Positions 7,462 to 29,911 of a stretch of DNA of 38,395 nt are shown one piece after another (positions within the stretch are counted from its first letter, which is position 1; each line of letters begins with the position of its first letter). The DNA comes from a virus. Made by a program: the position numbers and the translations under genes. Under the pieces are notes generated by a model. The model was given only the letters and a program-made list of their open reading frames with translations. It was not told where the DNA came from and ran no database searches. The stretch is taken from the UHGV virus genome UHGV-0217314; one strand, written 5' to 3'.

Positions 7462-7630
7462 CTTCTTCTCGTAGCTGAGCTAAAAAAGTCGGTGTCAATC
7501 CCTTACTTGCTGACGATATACTTGTTCTACCCATTCTTGCGGCAGTCAATACTTCACTAACAATTTTTTCTTGTGCGTTCGTTAGCATAGCGGTGTAAAT
7601 ATCGTCATTCAGTCCAGAAACGGAAATCAT
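7406..7630 (-). CDS. Hypothetical protein (74 aa)
   Basis: ORF only. It overlaps its neighbour, so the start is uncertain. Confidence 0.3.
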   Translation of the reverse strand: MISVSGLNDDIYTAMLTNAQEKIVSEVLTAARMGRTSISSASKGLTPTFLAQLREEGVDHIIEADGRFKLFWEF

Positions 7631-7965
7631 TTGAAATCACCTCGAATGATTTGATTTAAAATATCCGGAATGTCTTGGAGATCGTCTATTACGAATGTAT
7701 GTGTATGTTTAGATGTCTCTTCTTCCTCAATATCAAATAAAGCTTTTAACATCCGATGTTTTGAGCAGTCACAATCTAACTTGATTAATTCTTCTTTTAC
7801 TTTGTTGTACTGTTCGAGAACAGCGATTGCGATAAGAGAATCACTTCCTACTTGTGCGAATCCCATATCACCTATAACATCTAGCGTTGCTAAAGATAAA
7901 CTCACATTTTCTTTCTGACATTCTTTTGCCAGTTCTTCGATTAAGTTTTGAATTTTTTCATTCAT
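7627..7965 (-). CDS. Hypothetical protein (112 aa)
   Basis: ORF, 4-nt overlap coupling. Confidence 0.4.
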   Translation of the reverse strand: MNEKIQNLIEELAKECQKENVSLSLATLDVIGDMGFAQVGSDSLIAIAVLEQYNKVKEELIKLDCDCSKHRMLKALFDIEEEETSKHTHTFVIDDLQDIPDILNQIIRGDFK

Positions 7966-8144
7966 TTTGTTATACTCCTTTTGTGTAATGTATTCATTGT
8001 TCGTCTACACTAGCTGGAACTGGTGTAGGCTTTTTTTATATCTCTCATCTCTTGATCTCCCTCAGACGTCTGCCACATTTCTTGCAATATGGACCATTCC
8101 ACGGCTCGCATTTTTTCAATTCCGTAGCATTGATAAGCGTTTTT

Positions 8145-8369
8145 CTATTGCAGCTCTTGCATTGGAACTGATGAGGCTTTTCTTCTATCAGCATTTTCTA
8201 TTCCCCTCCTTAACCGTCTTCTATAAGCAATATCGTCATACTTTATTAGCCACCACATGATTGATACTGGTAATGCAATAAGTGCCCAATCTGGTAATTG
8301 TCGACTACTAAACCAAACACCTAGAAAGAATATGGTGATCAAGAATGCTGATCTTCGTAAACTTTTCAT
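8145..8369 (-). CDS. Small membrane protein (74 aa)
   Basis: Two hydrophobic segments (FLITIFFLGVWF and LIALPVSIMWWLI) followed by a basic tail. Confidence 0.35.
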   Translation of the reverse strand: MKSLRRSAFLITIFFLGVWFSSRQLPDWALIALPVSIMWWLIKYDDIAYRRRLRRGIENADRRKASSVPMQELQ

Positions 8370-8444
8370 AAAATCACTCCTACCTGTTGTATAATCTCCT
8401 TATCAGTCAGTGGTCGGCTGAAATAATCAAAAGGAGATGATTAT

Positions 8445-12196: not shown

Positions 12197-12943
12197 ATGG
12201 GACTGTTTGATAAGGTAAAAGACAAAGCTACAAAAGCCATGTCAGAACAAATAGATAATTTGAAATCCAAAGATATTGCTGGTAAAAACATTGGTAATAT
12301 GATGAAGCCAATTGAAAATGCAGCTAGTACCGCTCTTTCTAATCATCAAGAAAACAAGAAAGAACAAAAGATTGTCTTGCCTGTGAAAAAACCATTTATG
12401 AAACAATTAGATTCGATTACTTTAAGACGAGATATTAATGATTATTTTTACGTTTCCAAAAAATATGATCCAAATGCAACTAAATATCAATTTGAGCGTT
12501 TTGAGTGGAATGGGAGCACTATAACCCAAGAAACAACAACTACAGGTAATATTAAAACAAAAGGTAGGACAGGACAAACTATTGCTGGTACGGCACTATT
12601 AGGACCAGCAGGAGCAATTATTGGTAGTGCTGGAAAACGAAAAAGTAAGGTTGATACTAAATCAACCACAACTATAAAAGAAGTTGGCAGTGAAGGGAAA
12701 ATATTTTTACGAAATTTAGAAAATGGCTCTATAGAAGAAATAAAAGTTTTTCTTGAGTCGGCACAAGCGAGTAACCTAGAACGCTTTATTGCAAATGTTG
12801 ATTATACAGAAGATACTACTGTTGAAAAATCAAATGAACATTCTTCTACACAACGATTAAAAGAATTAAAAGAATTACTTGATTTGGGGATTATTACACA
12901 AGAAGAATTTGAGTTGAAGAAAAAAGAGATCTTAGAACTATAA
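12197..12943 (+). CDS. SHOCT-domain protein with a glycine-zipper segment (248 aa); moron
   Basis: C-terminal LKELKELLDLGIITQEEFELKKKEIL is a SHOCT-type motif. GTALLGPAGAIIGSAG is a glycine zipper. N-terminal MGLFDKVKDKA. The gene has its own promoter and RBS. Confidence 0.55.
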   Translation: MGLFDKVKDKATKAMSEQIDNLKSKDIAGKNIGNMMKPIENAASTALSNHQENKKEQKIVLPVKKPFMKQLDSITLRRDINDYFYVSKKYDPNATKYQFERFEWNGSTITQETTTTGNIKTKGRTGQTIAGTALLGPAGAIIGSAGKRKSKVDTKSTTTIKEVGSEGKIFLRNLENGSIEEIKVFLESAQASNLERFIANVDYTEDTTVEKSNEHSSTQRLKELKELLDLGIITQEEFELKKKEILEL

Positions 12944-24640: not shown

Positions 24641-24916
24641 TCACCTCCTATTTCTAAAGTGTTCCAAAGCTTTCAAAGCTTTATCCAAGCGCTTGTTACC
24701 TTTTTTCGTTTGTTTAGCATTTCGATCAAATGCTTTCTTAATTCGATTTTCTGCTGATTTTTTATTAATAATTTTTTTCATTTGTGGCTTTTTAGCATTT
24801 AAGATATAGCGCAAATTAAATCCAAAAATAGCATTTTGTTCCTGTTTGTCTAATTCACGCAAACTCAAGCCTTCAAGAATTGCTTCGAGTTCCCATAAGT
24901 AACAATTCATAATCAA
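24641..24916 (-). CDS. Tail assembly chaperone, frameshift extension (gpT-like). Expressed as a G-T fusion through a -1 frameshift.
   Basis: The frame stays open upstream in the -1 frame relative to the G ORF, across the G stop and back to about 25125. Confidence 0.5.
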   Translation of the reverse strand: MIMNCYLWELEAILEGLSLRELDKQEQNAIFGFNLRYILNAKKPQMKKIINKKSAENRIKKAFDRNAKQTKKGNKRLDKALKALEHFRNRR

Positions 24917-24951: not shown

Positions 24952-25425
24952 CTATGAGATCTCTTTCGTGATTCTTTCCGCTAATTTCTTCAACTCGTCC
25001 GCTTGAAGCTTCGACTCTTCCGTTTCTCGAGCCGCTATAACTTTGTGAGCTTTCTCCAGATTCTCCTTGTATTTGCGGATCTTGCTCACGAAAAAACCTG
25101 ATGCTAACATTTCTTCTTTCAGATCAGCAAAAATTTGATTATAGGCTTCCTCTTCACCCATTCCGCTATTAACAAGATTGTCTGTATAATTTTGTACAGC
25201 TTCTAAAACATCATTTTCGGTAAAATTCTTATCGACAAGTTGTAACAAGTTGACTAAAGCATCATCTTCTTTCTCTAGAACTTGAACAAAAAGAATCCCG
25301 GCACCATCGTTTTGAGAATTTCCATCCGCATCTTTAGTTCCCAATTTTTTATTGGCTTTAAAATTTAAAGCGTAGTTGAATTTGATATTGCAATCTTTGT
25401 TTTTTACTTTGATATCAAAAGACAT
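24952..25425 (-). CDS. Tail assembly chaperone (gpG-like)
   Basis: N-terminal MSFDIKVKNKDCNIKFNYALNFKANKKLG is typical of tail assembly chaperones. Positioned upstream of the TMP. Confidence 0.65.
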   Translation of the reverse strand: MSFDIKVKNKDCNIKFNYALNFKANKKLGTKDADGNSQNDGAGILFVQVLEKEDDALVNLLQLVDKNFTENDVLEAVQNYTDNLVNSGMGEEEAYNQIFADLKEEMLASGFFVSKIRKYKENLEKAHKVIAARETEESKLQADELKKLAERITKEIS

Positions 25426-25458
25426 TTAACCATTCCTCCTAAATAAAAAAGAGCCAGT

Positions 25459-26343
25459 CTAACGACTAACTCTTTTAATTGCTTCCACATATTTTGCTGA
25501 CGCTTTTCTTTTATTAACAAAAGATAGATCATCTTCAAATGGTGATGTATCAACGTACTTGCCTTTAAAGAATAGATCGCGATCTTTTTCGGTTACTCCT
25601 GCATTATGAAGAATTTTTACTTGTTTACATTTCTCAATTGAATCCGTAGAAAAGCAAAAAGATAATTCTTCGTGGATTTTAGGTCCAACATTGAAATACA
25701 TCATATTCCAAAGTTGCGCCCACATTTCAGCAGTCCATTTTTGAATGTTGCTATTCACTTTTTTAAAGTATTGATAAAGACGATTTGAATCGAAATAAAC
25801 TTTTTTCCAATACTCCGCTCTAGGATTCTTTATAACCCACTGTGCACCACCAGAATTAAAATTAATGGTTTCCAACGATTCCACTGAAACATTTACGATC
25901 TCAGCCATACCTTTCAAAATAGATTCTCCATTTTCACAACTGCGAATATAATCAAGATTTAGGTAGTGGTTGCAATCACTGCAATACCAAACATCTTCTT
26001 TTGAAGTCATTTTACGCAAATCAATCTTTTGATTGAAAATGACATCCGAATCAATATAAACATACCGCTCTTTTTCACGTTTAGGATCTTCTTTCAAGTA
26101 TTGCCACCACAGATAAGGCTTGATAGAAGGAATATAACCTTTATCCTCTCTATCATCTCTATATACGTGAACTTCAACATTGTATTTATCAGCTAAATAA
26201 GCAGGAATTGTTGAATCATGTTCGCTAAAAAGCAGTACAATATCATTGATACCGAACGACTTCAAGTTAGTTAAACAAACTTCAAGTTCCCACTTGAAAC
26301 GATTGATAGCAGGTTGACAAAGAATATATTTCATTTTTCCCAC
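25459..26343 (-). CDS. Putative GT-A-like glycosyltransferase (DxD motif) inserted between the major tail protein and the tail chaperones
   Basis: YVYIDSDVIF is a DxD-like motif sitting about 100 residues in. The fold and family could not be verified from sequence alone. Confidence 0.4.
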   Translation of the reverse strand: MGKMKYILCQPAINRFKWELEVCLTNLKSFGINDIVLLFSEHDSTIPAYLADKYNVEVHVYRDDREDKGYIPSIKPYLWWQYLKEDPKREKERYVYIDSDVIFNQKIDLRKMTSKEDVWYCSDCNHYLNLDYIRSCENGESILKGMAEIVNVSVESLETINFNSGGAQWVIKNPRAEYWKKVYFDSNRLYQYFKKVNSNIQKWTAEMWAQLWNMMYFNVGPKIHEELSFCFSTDSIEKCKQVKILHNAGVTEKDRDLFFKGKYVDTSPFEDDLSFVNKRKASAKYVEAIKRVSR

Positions 26344-26967
26344 CTACTCCTGCGTCGTTGTGGTGGTAGTTGCTTGTGTTGTGGTCGTAGTCGTTTGAAT
26401 ATCATCGTAGTCTCCAGTTGTTTCACCTGGGTTTTGGTAATCATACAGTGCTTCAATTGCTGAAATATCGTCATTTGATAATGGGAATTTACCTTCTTGA
26501 AGTTTTCCGATAATGTTTAATGTGTAAGAAGCTTCCACAAGATCATCACCGTCCGCAATCTCCACATCATCGGGCATACCGTAGCCGAATTCCGCTGGAT
26601 ATAGCTTTACATCAGTTTCTCCTTCGGCTTCTTCAGCAACAGAATCATCAATTTCCACACGCCAAACTTTTACAGACGTTCCATTTTTCTTTGCATCTTT
26701 GACAACTTTGATCGCTTCGTCTTTCGGTACAAAATATTGTGTCAAATCAATCGAATGCTCGTCAGTTGATTTGATGATAATACGCCCCATTTTAGTTTGC
26801 TCATCAATATTTTCTCCGCCATATGTTACGCCCCCTTCTGTTTGAAAAGCAGGCAATAGCGCAGGTGAGCCAATTTCTGCAGAAACTGATTGGATAAAAT
26901 ACCAGACTTTCTTAGCAGTCAATGCTTTACCTGTAGTTTTTTTGACGCCATTATTTACAATAGCCAT
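26344..26967 (-). CDS. Major tail protein with a C-terminal poly-Thr tail
   Basis: Position and size. The C-terminus is TTTTTQATTTTTTQE. Confidence 0.6.
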   Translation of the reverse strand: MAIVNNGVKKTTGKALTAKKVWYFIQSVSAEIGSPALLPAFQTEGGVTYGGENIDEQTKMGRIIIKSTDEHSIDLTQYFVPKDEAIKVVKDAKKNGTSVKVWRVEIDDSVAEEAEGETDVKLYPAEFGYGMPDDVEIADGDDLVEASYTLNIIGKLQEGKFPLSNDDISAIEALYDYQNPGETTGDYDDIQTTTTTTQATTTTTTQE

Positions 26968-26979
26968 GTTTCATTCCTC

Positions 26980-27330
26980 CTAAATTATTAGTTCGTTGAT
27001 TCTGAAAACTACATGATAGACTTCTCGACCAACTGAGCTATCAATAAGTACTTGGTGAGTAAGTCGCTTGTTTAACGCAACTTTCGTTTTAAAAATAGCT
27101 TCTTCTAAATTTGTTCGACTGTTAATCGGATAAAATAAATCGATCTGCAAACTTGTATCAACGATCGCTGGTCCAAATTTAGCACTAGGTGAATCATCCC
27201 CGGTGTGTGTGCCTATCACATAAAAAGGCTCCTTGACTTCAGGATCAGGGAGCTTAAATTCTACTGAAATTCCAGTGGTAGATAGCTTTTGAGATACATC
27301 TTTAAGGTATTCTGTCATAGGAGAGTACAT
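26980..27330 (-). CDS. Tail completion / head-tail joining protein
   Basis: Position in the conserved block between MCP and MTP. Confidence 0.4.
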   Translation of the reverse strand: MYSPMTEYLKDVSQKLSTTGISVEFKLPDPEVKEPFYVIGTHTGDDSPSAKFGPAIVDTSLQIDLFYPINSRTNLEEAIFKTKVALNKRLTHQVLIDSSVGREVYHVVFRINELII

Positions 27331-27334
27331 GCAA

Positions 27335-27712
27335 TCACCCTCTCACTAGCTTTGTAAGCCGTTTTTGCAGGATTGGCCAATCTGCCTTTAATGCTGGGAA
27401 TAGAAATGGCTGTGCAAACATGAATCGAGTGCCCATCTCAACAAAGATAGAGTATTCAGCTGGCGAGATAACTTCTGCTTGCATCAAACCAACTACACTG
27501 GCATAGATATTGTTTGACATCCAACCAGTATCCCAAGCCGCCAATTTCTTACTGCGTTTTTCCACACGCAAGCTTGAAAGCTTAATTTCCTGATCAATGG
27601 CTTTATCCAACTGAGGTGCTTTTCGCTGAACGTTTCGAATAAATTGCTTCATGCCTTTTATTTTCACGCTTTTACTCATGTCAAAATCACCACCGTTGAA
27701 TTTCGGTGCCAC
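27335..27712 (-). CDS. HK97 gp10-like tail component
   Basis: Position and size only. Confidence 0.4.
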   Translation of the reverse strand: MAPKFNGGDFDMSKSVKIKGMKQFIRNVQRKAPQLDKAIDQEIKLSSLRVEKRSKKLAAWDTGWMSNNIYASVVGLMQAEVISPAEYSIFVEMGTRFMFAQPFLFPALKADWPILQKRLTKLVRG

Positions 27713-27957
27713 TTCGTCTGATAAACAGATCGTTCCAAACCGTCGTATTCAATTTTAGAAAAACCTTTGTGGATCCCTTGAATATGCAATTTGAACGCCT
27801 TCTGATTGTACTTTCCAAAGATTCCTATTTGTTCATTATTTGATAATCCAGTTTTGCCGCATGGTTCAATTGTTTCCTTTTCTTCAATGACATCATCTCC
27901 AAGATAACCAGGGACTTTTCTTTCATAGGTTATCTTGACGCGATCATTGTAATTCAA
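27676..27957 (-). CDS. Head closure / head-tail adaptor protein
   Basis: Position and size only. Confidence 0.4.
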   Translation of the reverse strand: MNYNDRVKITYERKVPGYLGDDVIEEKETIEPCGKTGLSNNEQIGIFGKYNQKAFKLHIQGIHKGFSKIEYDGLERSVYQTKWHRNSTVVILT

Positions 27958-28307
27958 CTAAAAAACCTCGTGATACCTTTGCCGGCACGAATTGTGGGCT
28001 TAGTATACTCATCGAAAATATCCAGATACTCATTCAAATAAGATGGTTCCCAAGAATAGGAACGACCTTCCTCACTATCTGCAGTAGTCCCCTCACTGTT
28101 GCGTTTATTAAAACGTTTGATAGCGACATCCCTTTGAATATAGATCAGGTCTGTTGGAATAGTCTTGTGCTTGTCAGTATCATTTTTTGCAGCAAATTGA
28201 TTTAAAACGGATAAGATCCGTTGCTCGCTATCCTCAATAATCAAATTAAGCAACGGATCTTGTAACGCATCTTGAATACCTAGAAACAGCTTGATGTCTT
28301 CTAGCAT
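27954..28307 (-). CDS. Head-tail connector protein (gp6-like)
   Basis: N-terminal LEDIKLFLGIQDALQDPLLNLIIEDSEQRIL is typical of gp6-like connectors. Confidence 0.5.
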   Translation of the reverse strand: MLEDIKLFLGIQDALQDPLLNLIIEDSEQRILSVLNQFAAKNDTDKHKTIPTDLIYIQRDVAIKRFNKRNSEGTTADSEEGRSYSWEPSYLNEYLDIFDEYTKPTIRAGKGITRFFS

Positions 28308-28321
28308 TTCTATCCCCTACC

Positions 28322-29281
28322 TTATCCTTCGGTCGTTGTAGTCGTTGTAGTTGGCGCTACGGCTTCGATAGTTGCTTCTACTACGCCAGCAGGAATTTCT
28401 GGGAACAAGACTAATGCATTCATGAATAGTGATTCGTAAGTTGCATTGCGCAATGTACGTCCGCGAGTAGCAGAAATGAACCCTGTTTCATCTGTGAAAT
28501 CTACAAAGATATCACCTAGATCGCTAGCTTTCATATCCAAATAAGCTAATACGAGATTGTCAACCGCAGTTGAATAAACTTTACCTTCTGGAATTGCGTT
28601 TAATACAACAACGTTAGTAGCTCCCAAGAAGTTTTTCAGCAACGTCATTCCAAAAACATTCGATGCATCAGCTAAGACTTTTGTGTCACCAAGATATGTC
28701 GCTGCATCCATTGGATTAATAAATGAAACGAATTGTGCACCGTCAAACTCTTCAAATGTGCTTAATTTTCCCCAAGATTGAGCCAATGCTTTTTGCAATC
28801 CATCTGCGGTAATTTTTGTTGGCGCTGTGCCTAAAAAGTCAACAAATTTTGTTTTAATTCCACCTTGGATTTGACGTAATAATTTATTATCAGCTTGATC
28901 AATTGCTAATGAGGCTCCATGACGAGCAATCGATTCAGCAGTCACAGCACGACGCCATTTGTTAAACGTTACTTGATAAGACTTATCTTTTGCACGAGTA
29001 ACTTTAGATAGAGGAATGTCTTCACCTTCTGCGACATTTCCAGATTTTAAATCAGTCGTCCATTTGTACATTTGGATTTTCATATCACTCGATAATGGTT
29101 CTAAACGTGTAACGCCCAACAGTTCAAGTAATTCTTTGATACCGGCTTCAAATCGGTTAACAAAATCGATCGACTTGATTTCCCCAAGATCGTCCATGGT
29201 TGTTAATCCATCTTCTGCAGCAAAAAATTGTAGTTGCATTTTCATGAATCGTTTTTTATTTGTTTTTGACATGTTTTTCAT
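28322..29281 (-). CDS. Major capsid protein with an L27-like N-terminal motif and a C-terminal poly-Thr tail
   Basis: Size and position after the scaffold. N-terminal ...FMKMQLQFFAAEDG. C-terminal APTTTTTTTEG. Strong RBS AGGAGG. Confidence 0.8.
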   Translation of the reverse strand: MKNMSKTNKKRFMKMQLQFFAAEDGLTTMDDLGEIKSIDFVNRFEAGIKELLELLGVTRLEPLSSDMKIQMYKWTTDLKSGNVAEGEDIPLSKVTRAKDKSYQVTFNKWRRAVTAESIARHGASLAIDQADNKLLRQIQGGIKTKFVDFLGTAPTKITADGLQKALAQSWGKLSTFEEFDGAQFVSFINPMDAATYLGDTKVLADASNVFGMTLLKNFLGATNVVVLNAIPEGKVYSTAVDNLVLAYLDMKASDLGDIFVDFTDETGFISATRGRTLRNATYESLFMNALVLFPEIPAGVVEATIEAVAPTTTTTTTEG

Positions 29282-29293
29282 TTGTTGTTCCTC

Positions 29294-29911
29294 CTAAAAT
29301 AGTTCTCTATTTGCAGCAATCATTCGTTGACGTTCAGTAGTATCTTTAATCGCCATAATTTCTGCTTTAGTCATTTGTCCACCTGCAGTACCAACTTTCG
29401 TTTTGTTTTTCGAAGCCAATCGTTCATTGACCTTTGCTTCTACTGCCTTATCCCATTCTGCACGGAAAGCCTTAACATCCTCTAGGATTTCTTCAGCAGT
29501 ATCGCCAGCAATCCGATGCGCAAAATCAGCTGGTATTCCTTGAGCCGTTAGTTGTTTGCCTTTTTCAACATACAATTGCTCTTTCCGGAATTCTTCTTTT
29601 TCTTTCTCGAACTCCTCTTTTTCCTTTTGAATCAAGGCTTTTTGACGATCTTCTTCAGAAAGCTTCGCCAATCTAGCAGCTTCATTTTTTTGTTCTTCTA
29701 ATTCTTTTTGCCATCTTGATTTCTTGTTTTTAATGATAGAATCAACATCTTTGTCATCTTTAAAACCAAATTTTTCCTTAATGGCTGCCAATTGTTCTTC
29801 ATCTAATTCATCCACGTTGAAATTTGGTGTTGGATCTCCCGGGTCGTTTCCTCCACCATCTTCAGCGAAAAATTGTAGATTCAATGGCATAAATAACTTC
29901 TTTTTCATCAT
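29294..29911 (-). CDS. Scaffolding protein
   Basis: Helical, charged, coiled-coil-rich protein immediately upstream of the MCP. N-terminal MPLNLQFFAEDGGG. Confidence 0.7.
   Translation of the reverse strand: MMKKKLFMPLNLQFFAEDGGGNDPGDPTPNFNVDELDEEQLAAIKEKFGFKDDKDVDSIIKNKKSRWQKELEEQKNEAARLAKLSEEDRQKALIQKEKEEFEKEKEEFRKEQLYVEKGKQLTAQGIPADFAHRIAGDTAEEILEDVKAFRAEWDKAVEAKVNERLASKNKTKVGTAGGQMTKAEIMAIKDTTERQRMIAANRELF

Follow-up and report, generated by a model that had tools for sequence, protein, structure and literature searches.

Poly-threonine C-termini of phage capsid and tail tube proteins and a linked GT-A-fold gene: a candidate module for virion O-glycosylation

UHGV virus genome UHGV-0217314, a stretch of 38,395 nucleotides which is referred to here as the window, encodes a major capsid protein (MCP) and a major tail (tube) protein (MTP) that both end in runs of threonine. 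The locus raises the question what such tails are for, and whether they have to do with the gene that starts directly behind that of the MTP and whose product is predicted to fold like a glycosyltransferase (GT). The original prediction, made from the letters alone, regarded the tails as plausible acceptor sites for O-glycosylation or as flexible surface decorations, and pointed to the GT-like gene. This interpretation gained support from the predicted fold of the enzyme, from domain fusions in its family and from comparative genomics. Judging from the structural model and the sequence comparisons described below, we consider it likely that both tails are glycosylated by the product of the adjacent gene. 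The best explanation for the observations appears to be a portable module, composed of a poly-Thr acceptor tag and a dedicated O-glycosyltransferase, which acts on exposed C-termini of virion proteins.

The two tails and the adjacent gene

The C-terminus of the MCP reads ...GVVEATIEAVAPTTTTTTTEG, and the place originally assigned to its tail, APTTTTTTTEG, was exact (28325-28357). The MTP ends in ...GETTGDYDDIQTTTTTTQATTTTTTQE. Presence and location of its tail had been predicted correctly; it consists of two blocks of six Thr (QTTTTTTQATTTTTTQE), the first of which had been given as five. Thr accounts for 6.2% of the 11,872 coding residues, hence about 6e-4 runs of six or more Thr were expected; three were observed, all of them at most 12 residues from the C-termini of the MCP and the MTP. 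The claim that Thr tails are confined to these two proteins also held, as no other run of five or more Thr was present in the six-frame open reading frames (ORFs) of at least 60 aa in the window, the one further Thr run being an internal TTTT in 12197-12943. Because the Thr codons of both tails are mixed (ACT/ACA/ACG/ACC), the tails are not slippage-prone DNA repeats.

Both tails are appended to conserved cores. The MTP matched phrog_238 (9e-50), TIGR02126 (2e-28; 99.3 bits, cut-off 37), PF06199 (27.6 bits, cut-off 23.8) and, with residues 18-186, the structures of SPP1 gp17.1 (PDB 5a20/6yeg/6yq5, E 2.5e-24), and belongs to the gp17.1/TP901-1 family. Homology with gp17.1 stops at GETTGD, where the MTP tail starts (the conserved core ends in GETTGDYDDIQ), and tail-less relatives of the MTP terminate in ...GETTGDYDDIKTTPTP. 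For the MCP no solved sequence homologue was found, save a weak match to NF5 Gp6. Foldseek matches of its AlphaFold2 (AF2) model were all capsids or encapsulins, the best one being the HK97-fold NF5 structure 9m66. The protein was assigned as an HK97-fold MCP, with a scaffold gene (DUF4355) upstream. Its tail (residues 309-319; pLDDT below 50) is predicted to be disordered and begins after the last conserved strand, VVEATI, the conserved core ending in GVVEATI.

In SPP1 the gp17.1* protein carries an FN3 domain at the C-terminus of gp17.1, and this domain is displayed outside the tube. Similarly, C-terminal fusions are displayed on the surface of the HK97-fold capsids of T7 and P22. For the MCP, whose model scored low (pLDDT 64), we infer an outward-facing C-terminus by analogy with these capsids.

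The third component, the putative enzyme, is encoded by an ORF which begins at GTG 26343, directly after the MTP stop. Its true start is likely to be ATG 26334, because the family consensus begins with MKYILCQPA. The protein corresponds to phrog_4417, annotated as "unknown function" (1e-148), and its homologues among the matches listed are named hypothetical, uncharacterised, "bacteriophage protein" or "prophage pi2 protein 34". An AF2 model built from 30 homologues had a pLDDT of 95.6 and a pTM of 0.91. In the PDB it matched WbbM, the catalytic domain of UGGT, glycogenin, GTA/GTB, alpha-1,3-GalT, LgtC and the Skp1 alpha-galactosyltransferase (Foldseek, E 5e-9 to 2e-6, probability 1.00), which are GT-A enzymes, nearly all retaining. 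There were 257 fold matches in the PDB at E <= 1e-3, and those listed were almost all GT-A enzymes; the nearest matches in BFVD (predicted viral structures) beyond the protein's own family were viral GT8 proteins. The model has the GT-A topology, with a single Rossmann-like nucleotide-binding domain, and a DxD motif (D98-S-D100, 26052-26044) placed after a beta strand (93-96) in Y94-V-Y-I-D98-S-D100-V. D98, D100 and the distal H246 were invariant in the 30 homologues (54-76% identity). From the model, we are confident that the enzyme adopts a GT-A fold resembling those of the retaining glycosyltransferases of GT8, GT24 and GT6. Of the enzymes matched, glycogenin, UGGT and the Skp1 GalT have proteins or glycoproteins as their substrates.

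An exhaustive profile search collected 867 clusters at 50% identity for the enzyme family, 743 of them at E <= 1e-10. Many distant members are two-domain proteins with a C-terminal Glycos_transf_2 or Glyco_transf_7C domain scoring above the Pfam cut-offs; judged by sequence, such fusions offer the classic clue to a shared pathway. Examples are P0279, P0290, P0301, P0302 and P0373, distant members of 480-780 aa with fusions to Glycos_transf_2 or Glyco_transf_7C, in one case to radical SAM and SPASM domains and in one to a methyltransferase and GT2. This domain content suggests more elaborate modification pathways in other lineages.

Co-occurrence of tails and enzyme

Each of the 120 MCP homologues listed had a short variable tail after GVVEATI, and in seven of them this tail was poly-Thr. 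It was missing from MCPs about 85-94% identical to that of the window, and a neighbour-joining tree of 65 MCP cores required at least six changes of tail state. The suspicion that the tails are lineage-specific additions was thus borne out. In MCP-anchored loci a tailed MCP was always accompanied by a tailed MTP and by a GT gene between the MTP and the tail assembly chaperone (TAC) genes, and tail-less loci always lacked all three. Counting distinct MCPs, six had tail and GT, 31 had neither and none was discordant (Fisher p = 4e-7, a value that ignores kinship). Eight targeted look-ups all agreed with this pattern: four loci had tail and GT, Listeria kieliensis and E. faecium among them, and four had neither. 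Altogether, ten distinct prophages had both tails and the enzyme, 35 had neither, close relatives (~90% identity) being among the latter, and there was no discordant case. The 35 related loci without GT (625 kb, 1,687 ORFs) did not contain a single T5 run, and tail-less relatives were found in the same host genera. A peptide-pattern contig scan with the MCP alignment yielded mainly Streptococcus prophages, which served only as tail-less controls. The link between tails and GT-like gene that the original prediction had drawn was therefore perfect in this family, and widespread poly-Thr tails in homologues devoid of the gene, which it had named as evidence to the contrary, were not found among the MCP/MTP relatives.

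Comparison with a close relative delimited the inserted segment. In blastn the window was 87% identical to a tail-less, GT-less locus (L082) over 29398-26394 and 84% identical over 25441-24629. Between these blocks 952 nt of the window (26393-25442) replace 96 nt of the relative. The 952-nt segment extends from the first Thr codon of the MTP tail to just past the stop codon of the GT gene. With a single indel accounting for the difference from the relative, tag of the MTP and enzyme gene make up one cassette. In GT-less relatives the TAC gene directly follows the MTP gene.

The pairing was not restricted to relatives of the window's structural proteins. All of the 80 closest IMG/VR loci with the GT contained Thr-tailed ORFs. 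Most of these were E. faecalis-type prophages, in which the GT gene lies 3' of the MCP gene instead, and neither the 386-aa MCP nor the 201-aa MTP has detectable homology with its counterpart in the window. Their MCP ends in ...TTTTTTKPTTTTTTTQA and their MTP usually in ...SSTTTTTTTQA. Among 120 distinct evaluable GT sequences the adjacent upstream gene ended in a run of five or more Thr in 110 cases, and an ORF with a C-terminal Thr run was present somewhere in the locus in 118. GT and Thr-run proteins were paired in Lactococcus CHPC836, Lacticaseibacillus iLp84, Enterococcus VPE25, Clostridium FA88, the ~90-kb Staphylococcus/Mammaliicoccus siphoviruses and the Lactiplantibacillus myovirus Semele. 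Portal, small head proteins and the products of short Thr-rich ORFs that immediately precede the GT gene were among the Thr-run proteins of these phages. Altogether the co-occurrence of tails and GT spans hosts of at least eight genera. In the reverse direction, a GT-family gene was found in six of 120 arbitrary IMG/VR stretches coding for T8, whereas its base rate is at least 551 matching stretches in 2.9 million contigs; each of the six had the gene for the Thr-run protein directly upstream of the GT. The associations draw further weight from several independent comparisons of close relatives and from MCP/MTP families that are unrelated.

The usual tag consists of T5-7, a two-residue spacer (KP, QP, QA or RP), T6-7 and two to three terminal residues; the MCP of the window carries a single-block form. 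The residues following the last Thr run were identical between the MCP and the MTP of one genome in 11 of 19 distinct combinations (QA/QA, KKV/KKV, KKA/KKA, SHA/SHA, SK/SK, QG/QG). About 2.8 matches were expected by shuffling, and none of 10,000 shuffles reached 11, in a test that ignores kinship. The MCP and MTP genes of two lineages had the same final 30 nt, synonymous sites included, and in a Listeria prophage the last 12 residues of the two proteins were the same. Matched termini together with identical 3' ends show that tags were copied or homogenised within genomes. The sequences indicate gene conversion or cassette copying between the tail-coding ends of the two genes; selection for a common recognition motif is an additional possibility. 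Identity or near identity of the two genes over their final 27-30 nt was observed in L048 and L059 (E. faecalis-type), L132 (iLp84) and L335 (Listeria kieliensis), an example of a common 3' end being ACA ACC ACA ACA ACT ACA ACG AAA AAA GTG.

Further Thr-rich products were noticed next to the enzyme gene. Small proteins (~117-168 aa) that consist mostly of repeated T5-T12 blocks are encoded directly upstream of the GT in several phages (L132 6504-6881, iLp84; L128 18994-19996, Semele; L131 19563-19925; L062/L063/L070), and may be dedicated glycoprotein decorations or MTP frameshift extensions. In an E. faecium prophage (L336, 10872-11567) an ORF with Big_2/Big_15 domains overlaps the 3' end of the MTP gene and ends in TTTTTSQSTTTTTTTTQKE directly before the GT, which brings the Thr-tagged products of this phage to three. 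As in other siphophages, the ORF probably serves as a frameshift extension.

The positions of the features are collected in Table 1. By gene content the window is a virtually complete temperate siphophage genome. Lysogeny and DNA functions are represented by integrase, CI-like repressor, RecT, exonuclease, DnaD/DnaC loaders and methyltransferase, structural and lysis functions by terminase, SPP1-type portal, minor head protein, scaffold, MCP, connectors, MTP, chaperones, tape measure, Dit, Tal and endolysin. The GT-like protein has 99% identity with a protein of Enterococcus gallinarum. When the structural region was compared with 50,697 phage records by megablast, there was no match. No second glycosyltransferase was detected among the 30 window proteins scanned, the GT-fold gene between MTP and TAC being the single one. 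The scaffold (29294-29911; MMKKKLFMPLNLQFFAEDGG) and the MCP (RFMKMQLQFFAAEDG; MQLQFFAAEDG) have an N-terminal LQFFA motif in common, which we take to resemble the cleavage site of the Prp cysteine protease in ribosomal protein L27 and Staphylococcus phage 80alpha. A Peptidase_Prp (PF04327) is encoded between the portal and minor head genes of one tail-less relative (L341, 5045-5344).

Table 1. Position and assignment of the tails, the putative enzyme and the flanking genes in the window
Feature	Position	Strand	Basis
Major capsid protein (MCP) gene, 319 aa, HK97 fold	28322..29281	-	phrog_544 at 2e-70; Foldseek of AF2 model
MCP C-terminal tail APTTTTTTTEG, predicted O-glycosylation tag	28325..28357 (T7 run 28331-28351)	-	sequence
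Major tail (tube) protein (MTP) gene, 207 aa, SPP1 gp17.1 / TP901-1 family	26344..26967	-	PDB, TIGR02126, phrog_238
MTP C-terminal tail TTTTTTQATTTTTTQE, predicted O-glycosylation tag	26347..26394 (T6 blocks 26377-26394, 26353-26370)	-	sequence
GT-A-fold putative protein O-glycosyltransferase (phrog_4417), 294 aa	25459..26343	-	AF2 fold, DxD motif
Indel cassette, 952 nt (MTP poly-Thr tail and GT gene), relative to tail-less, GT-less relative	25442..26393	-	blastn
Tail assembly chaperone (TAC) genes, downstream border of the cassette	24952-25425, 24641-24916	-	PF12363, phrog_183, phrog_2567

Proposed mechanism and alternative explanations

In the envisaged mechanism the enzyme would be a cytoplasmic, metal-dependent glycosyltransferase of GT-A fold, made from the late structural operon; translation would start 9 nt after the MTP stop, from a ribosome-binding site located within the tail-coding codons. 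The DxD motif would bind a divalent metal, the donor would be a nucleotide sugar, and the sugar would be moved onto the Thr hydroxyls of the disordered C-terminal tails, before or after assembly. Because the enzyme resembles the retaining GT8/GT24/GT6 enzymes, the linkage is probably alpha, and because there is a single enzyme gene, the simplest product would be one monosaccharide per Thr. The C-termini of the MCP and the MTP should project from the surface of the particle, and the virion would therefore have a mucin-like glycan brush on head and tail. The potential sites amount to 7 per MCP and 12 per MTP, which would make roughly several thousand per virion. Tag and enzyme would travel as a small cassette at the 3' end of a structural gene, and further tags on other virion proteins would arise, or be homogenised, by intragenomic copying. 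Possible benefits are shielding from antibodies, proteases or defence sensors, adherence to mucus, and less sticking to cell-wall debris.

Several observations weigh against this mechanism. Neither single-sequence nor profile searches matched the enzyme to any Pfam, NCBIfam or PDB sequence, the TM-scores of its fold matches were modest (~0.5), and these matches included CpsY, a Stealth-type sugar-phosphate transferase. The association statistics ignore shared ancestry. Some E. faecalis prophages bearing the GT have only a degenerate MTP tail (TSVVTTTATQSQ): in L013, L016 and L009 the tail of the MTP (~12330-12938) has decayed to ...KKTSVVTTTATQSQ, and as the poly-Thr tail of the MCP was kept intact, tagging of the tube appears to be dispensable or in flux. 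The two exceptions among the 120 GT sequences were distant loci with GT-GT2 fusions, one without any Thr run and the other with internal runs only. In siphoviruses of 86-94 kb, whose MTP ends in T9-T10, Thr runs were found not on the MCP but inside a protease/scaffold-like protein, 22-48 residues from its C-terminus (L127 6119-7297, VPE25; L131 13047-14162, vB-SscS-F1; L133 14179-15300, TPWB06), and a Thr tract on a particle-internal protein does not fit a simple surface-coat model. Lastly, ORFs with poly-Thr C-termini occurred in unrelated viral contigs with no family member in the stretch covered. In L139 (4640-7255), L174 and L234 (2080-12711), with a GC content of 44-57%, consecutive ORFs of the structural region ended in T8-T17 at the stop codon, and a Pfam scan of their neighbours, which covered short stretches only, detected no glycosyltransferase. 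Poly-Thr C-terminal tags may thus be more general, and be served by other enzymes.

Among the alternatives the one that survives best, although we regard it as unlikely, is that the tails are unmodified flexible hydrophilic bristles or spacers, and that the enzyme acts elsewhere, for instance on host teichoic acid or the enterococcal polysaccharide antigen, in superinfection exclusion. Examples exist of prophage-encoded GT-A enzymes acting on wall polymers, and some prophage glycosyltransferases cause superinfection exclusion. The tail adjoining the enzyme gene would then hitch-hike within the inserted cassette, and since one and the same indel contains the MTP tail and the GT gene, their adjacency alone could reflect such hitch-hiking. 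However, tails are also found 2-3 kb from the GT gene (on the MCP of the window, and on the MTP in E. faecalis- and CHPC836-type phages), and they are lost together with it. The gene is, moreover, located inside the late structural operon, it is also present in phages without detected lysogeny functions such as Semele, and within a genome the two tails vary together in their terminal residues. A role of the enzyme in modifying DNA or wall polymers was judged less likely because tails on non-adjacent genes co-vary with it.

A slim chance is given to the explanation that the enzyme does modify the Thr tails, but attaches a sugar-1-phosphate or other nucleotide-activated group, or primes them for host polymer enzymes. 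The CpsY match would agree with this, as would the weak match of the family member P0301 to Stealth_CR2 (E 0.038), the fusion of some members to radical SAM/SPASM or methyltransferase domains, and the single enzyme gene in the window where mycobacteriophages have three or more. The best and most numerous fold matches were, however, the retaining hexosyltransferases of GT8, GT24 and GT6, and the DxD motif and the invariant distal His seem to fit the metal site of these enzymes.

It is very improbable that the tails are substrates of a host modification system, or elements of assembly or stability, with an unrelated gene as neighbour. Ser/Thr O-glycosylation systems for serine-rich adhesins and autolysins do exist in Gram-positive hosts, and with an MCP model of low confidence the exposure of the tail has been inferred; yet the tails co-occur perfectly with a phage gene over a range of at least eight host genera, and tail-less relatives infect the same host genera. 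Least probable of all is that the tracts are functionless mutational hot spots: low-complexity tracts are often unstable and tail length differs between relatives, but slippage or phase variation was rejected in view of the mixed Thr codons, which form no nucleotide homopolymer or short tandem repeat, every tract is in frame, and the architecture of T5-7, two-residue spacer, T6-7 and two to three residues recurs in unrelated proteins.

Returning to the tag and its dedicated glycosyltransferase, we lean towards the wider view that phages of Bacillota commonly carry unrecognised virion glycosylation, based on an orphan GT-A family (at least 740 clusters at 50% identity) and a transferable poly-Thr C-terminal tag, with hosts in Enterococcus, Lactobacillaceae, Lactococcus, Listeria, Staphylococcus/Mammaliicoccus, Bacillaceae and Clostridium. 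As the tag would be copied between structural genes by gene conversion, a brush could be gained by every virion protein whose C-terminus is exposed (capsid, tube, portal, decoration, fibre). Should the module be active, one would expect glycosylated particles to be a common feature of phages that infect enterococci, staphylococci, listeriae and dairy lactic acid bacteria, including model and therapy candidates (VPE25) and industrially important lactococcal and lactobacillal phages. The widespread "hypothetical" family phrog_4417, alias "prophage pi2 protein 34", would acquire a function and a recurrent low-complexity feature of capsid and tail proteins an explanation, with consequences for the reading of virion masses and cryo-EM densities and for immunogenicity, mucus binding and sensing by bacterial defence. 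Tag and enzyme would also constitute a minimal, genetically encodable pair for cytoplasmic O-glycosylation, and hence a tool for site-directed use. Freeman et al. 2023 (Cell Host Microbe 31:1216) reportedly saw little evidence of virion glycosylation outside actinobacteriophages, a view which the wider reading, if true, would overturn. In the literature we found no report of virion glycosylation or of poly-Thr tails in phages of Bacillota.

Relation to known systems

The enzyme shares with the GT8/GT24/GT6 enzymes the overall fold, the DxD motif after a strand (YVYIDSDV) and the invariant distal His. It differs from them in lacking membership at the sequence level: there was no match to Pfam Glyco_transf_8 (CAZy GT8), or to any other Pfam family even at E <= 1, a profile search of PDB sequences returned no glycosyltransferase, and TM-scores were about 0.5.

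With regard to tail decoration, the MTP of the window is a homologue of gp17.1, and its Thr tail occupies the same C-terminal position as the domain added in SPP1 gp17.1*. Decoration of the SPP1 type consists of a folded FN3/Ig-like domain, added by programmed frameshift to a fraction of the subunits, whereas the tail in the window is a short disordered Thr tract, presumably sugar-bearing, that is present on every subunit without a frameshift. The E. faecium relative, with both a Big_2 extension ORF and a Thr tail, resembles the SPP1 case.

Chlorovirus PBCV-1 decorates its MCP with its own cytoplasmic glycosyltransferases, independently of the secretory machinery of the host. A virus-encoded enzyme for capsid decoration would be the common element; PBCV-1 differs in being a eukaryotic giant virus whose complex N-linked glycans require several enzymes. 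Its capsid fold is unrelated, and there is no terminal tag. Dense, disordered clusters of hydroxy amino acids that serve as multi-site O-glycan acceptors of a cytoplasmic enzyme are known from O-glycoproteins of the mucin type and from bacterial ones rich in Ser/Thr, such as the serine-rich repeat adhesins (GtfA/GtfB). Those systems have initiating enzymes of GT-B fold, very long repeats and dedicated export, whereas here a GT-A-fold enzyme is combined with a virion tag of 7-20 C-terminal residues that is rich in Thr rather than Ser, which places the module outside the GtfA/GtfB systems.

The closest functional parallel is offered by mycobacteriophages. In the study of Freeman et al. glycans are reportedly attached at C-termini. 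Documented glycosylation of phage virions is confined to mycobacteriophages, whose glycosyltransferases modify capsid and tail tube proteins (Freeman et al. 2023, cited in PMC11600133 and PMC11256854). The same sources and a third one describe altered antibody production and recognition, which is considered to bear on phage therapy (PMC11256854, PMC11600133, PMC12691614). Ten other phages gave no glycoprotein staining in one study (PMC12894461). Cluster O mycobacteriophages (Corndog) have several glycosyltransferase genes in tandem, with or without a methyltransferase, at a distance from the structural genes (PMC11600133).

In mycobacteriophage Che8, phage-encoded glycosyltransferases act on both the capsid and the tail tube subunit, as the enzyme of the window is predicted to do. 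The MCP of Che8 (L332, 5051-5872) ends in ...FNKTGS and its MTP (7613-8422) in ...QYSDGS, a common Gly-Ser end that parallels the matched termini described above. Neither Che8 protein has a poly-Thr tract, whereas candidate Ser/Thr acceptor tails are present on both proteins of the window. The glycosyltransferase genes of Che8, three in number (gp108-110), are located at the extreme right of its genome, and the single one of the window inside the structural operon. The profile of the enzyme family, aligned with Che8 gp108, gp109 and gp110 by hhalign, gave probabilities of 0.2%, 0.5% and 0.04%, none of the three being detectably related, and Mycobacterium phages were absent from the 77 tblastn matches of the enzyme. 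Hosts of Che8 are Actinobacteria, those of the phages studied here Bacillota. With such differences in enzyme family, acceptor tag, number and position of genes and host phylum, the system of the window is not a member of the Che8 system, although it would function in a like manner.

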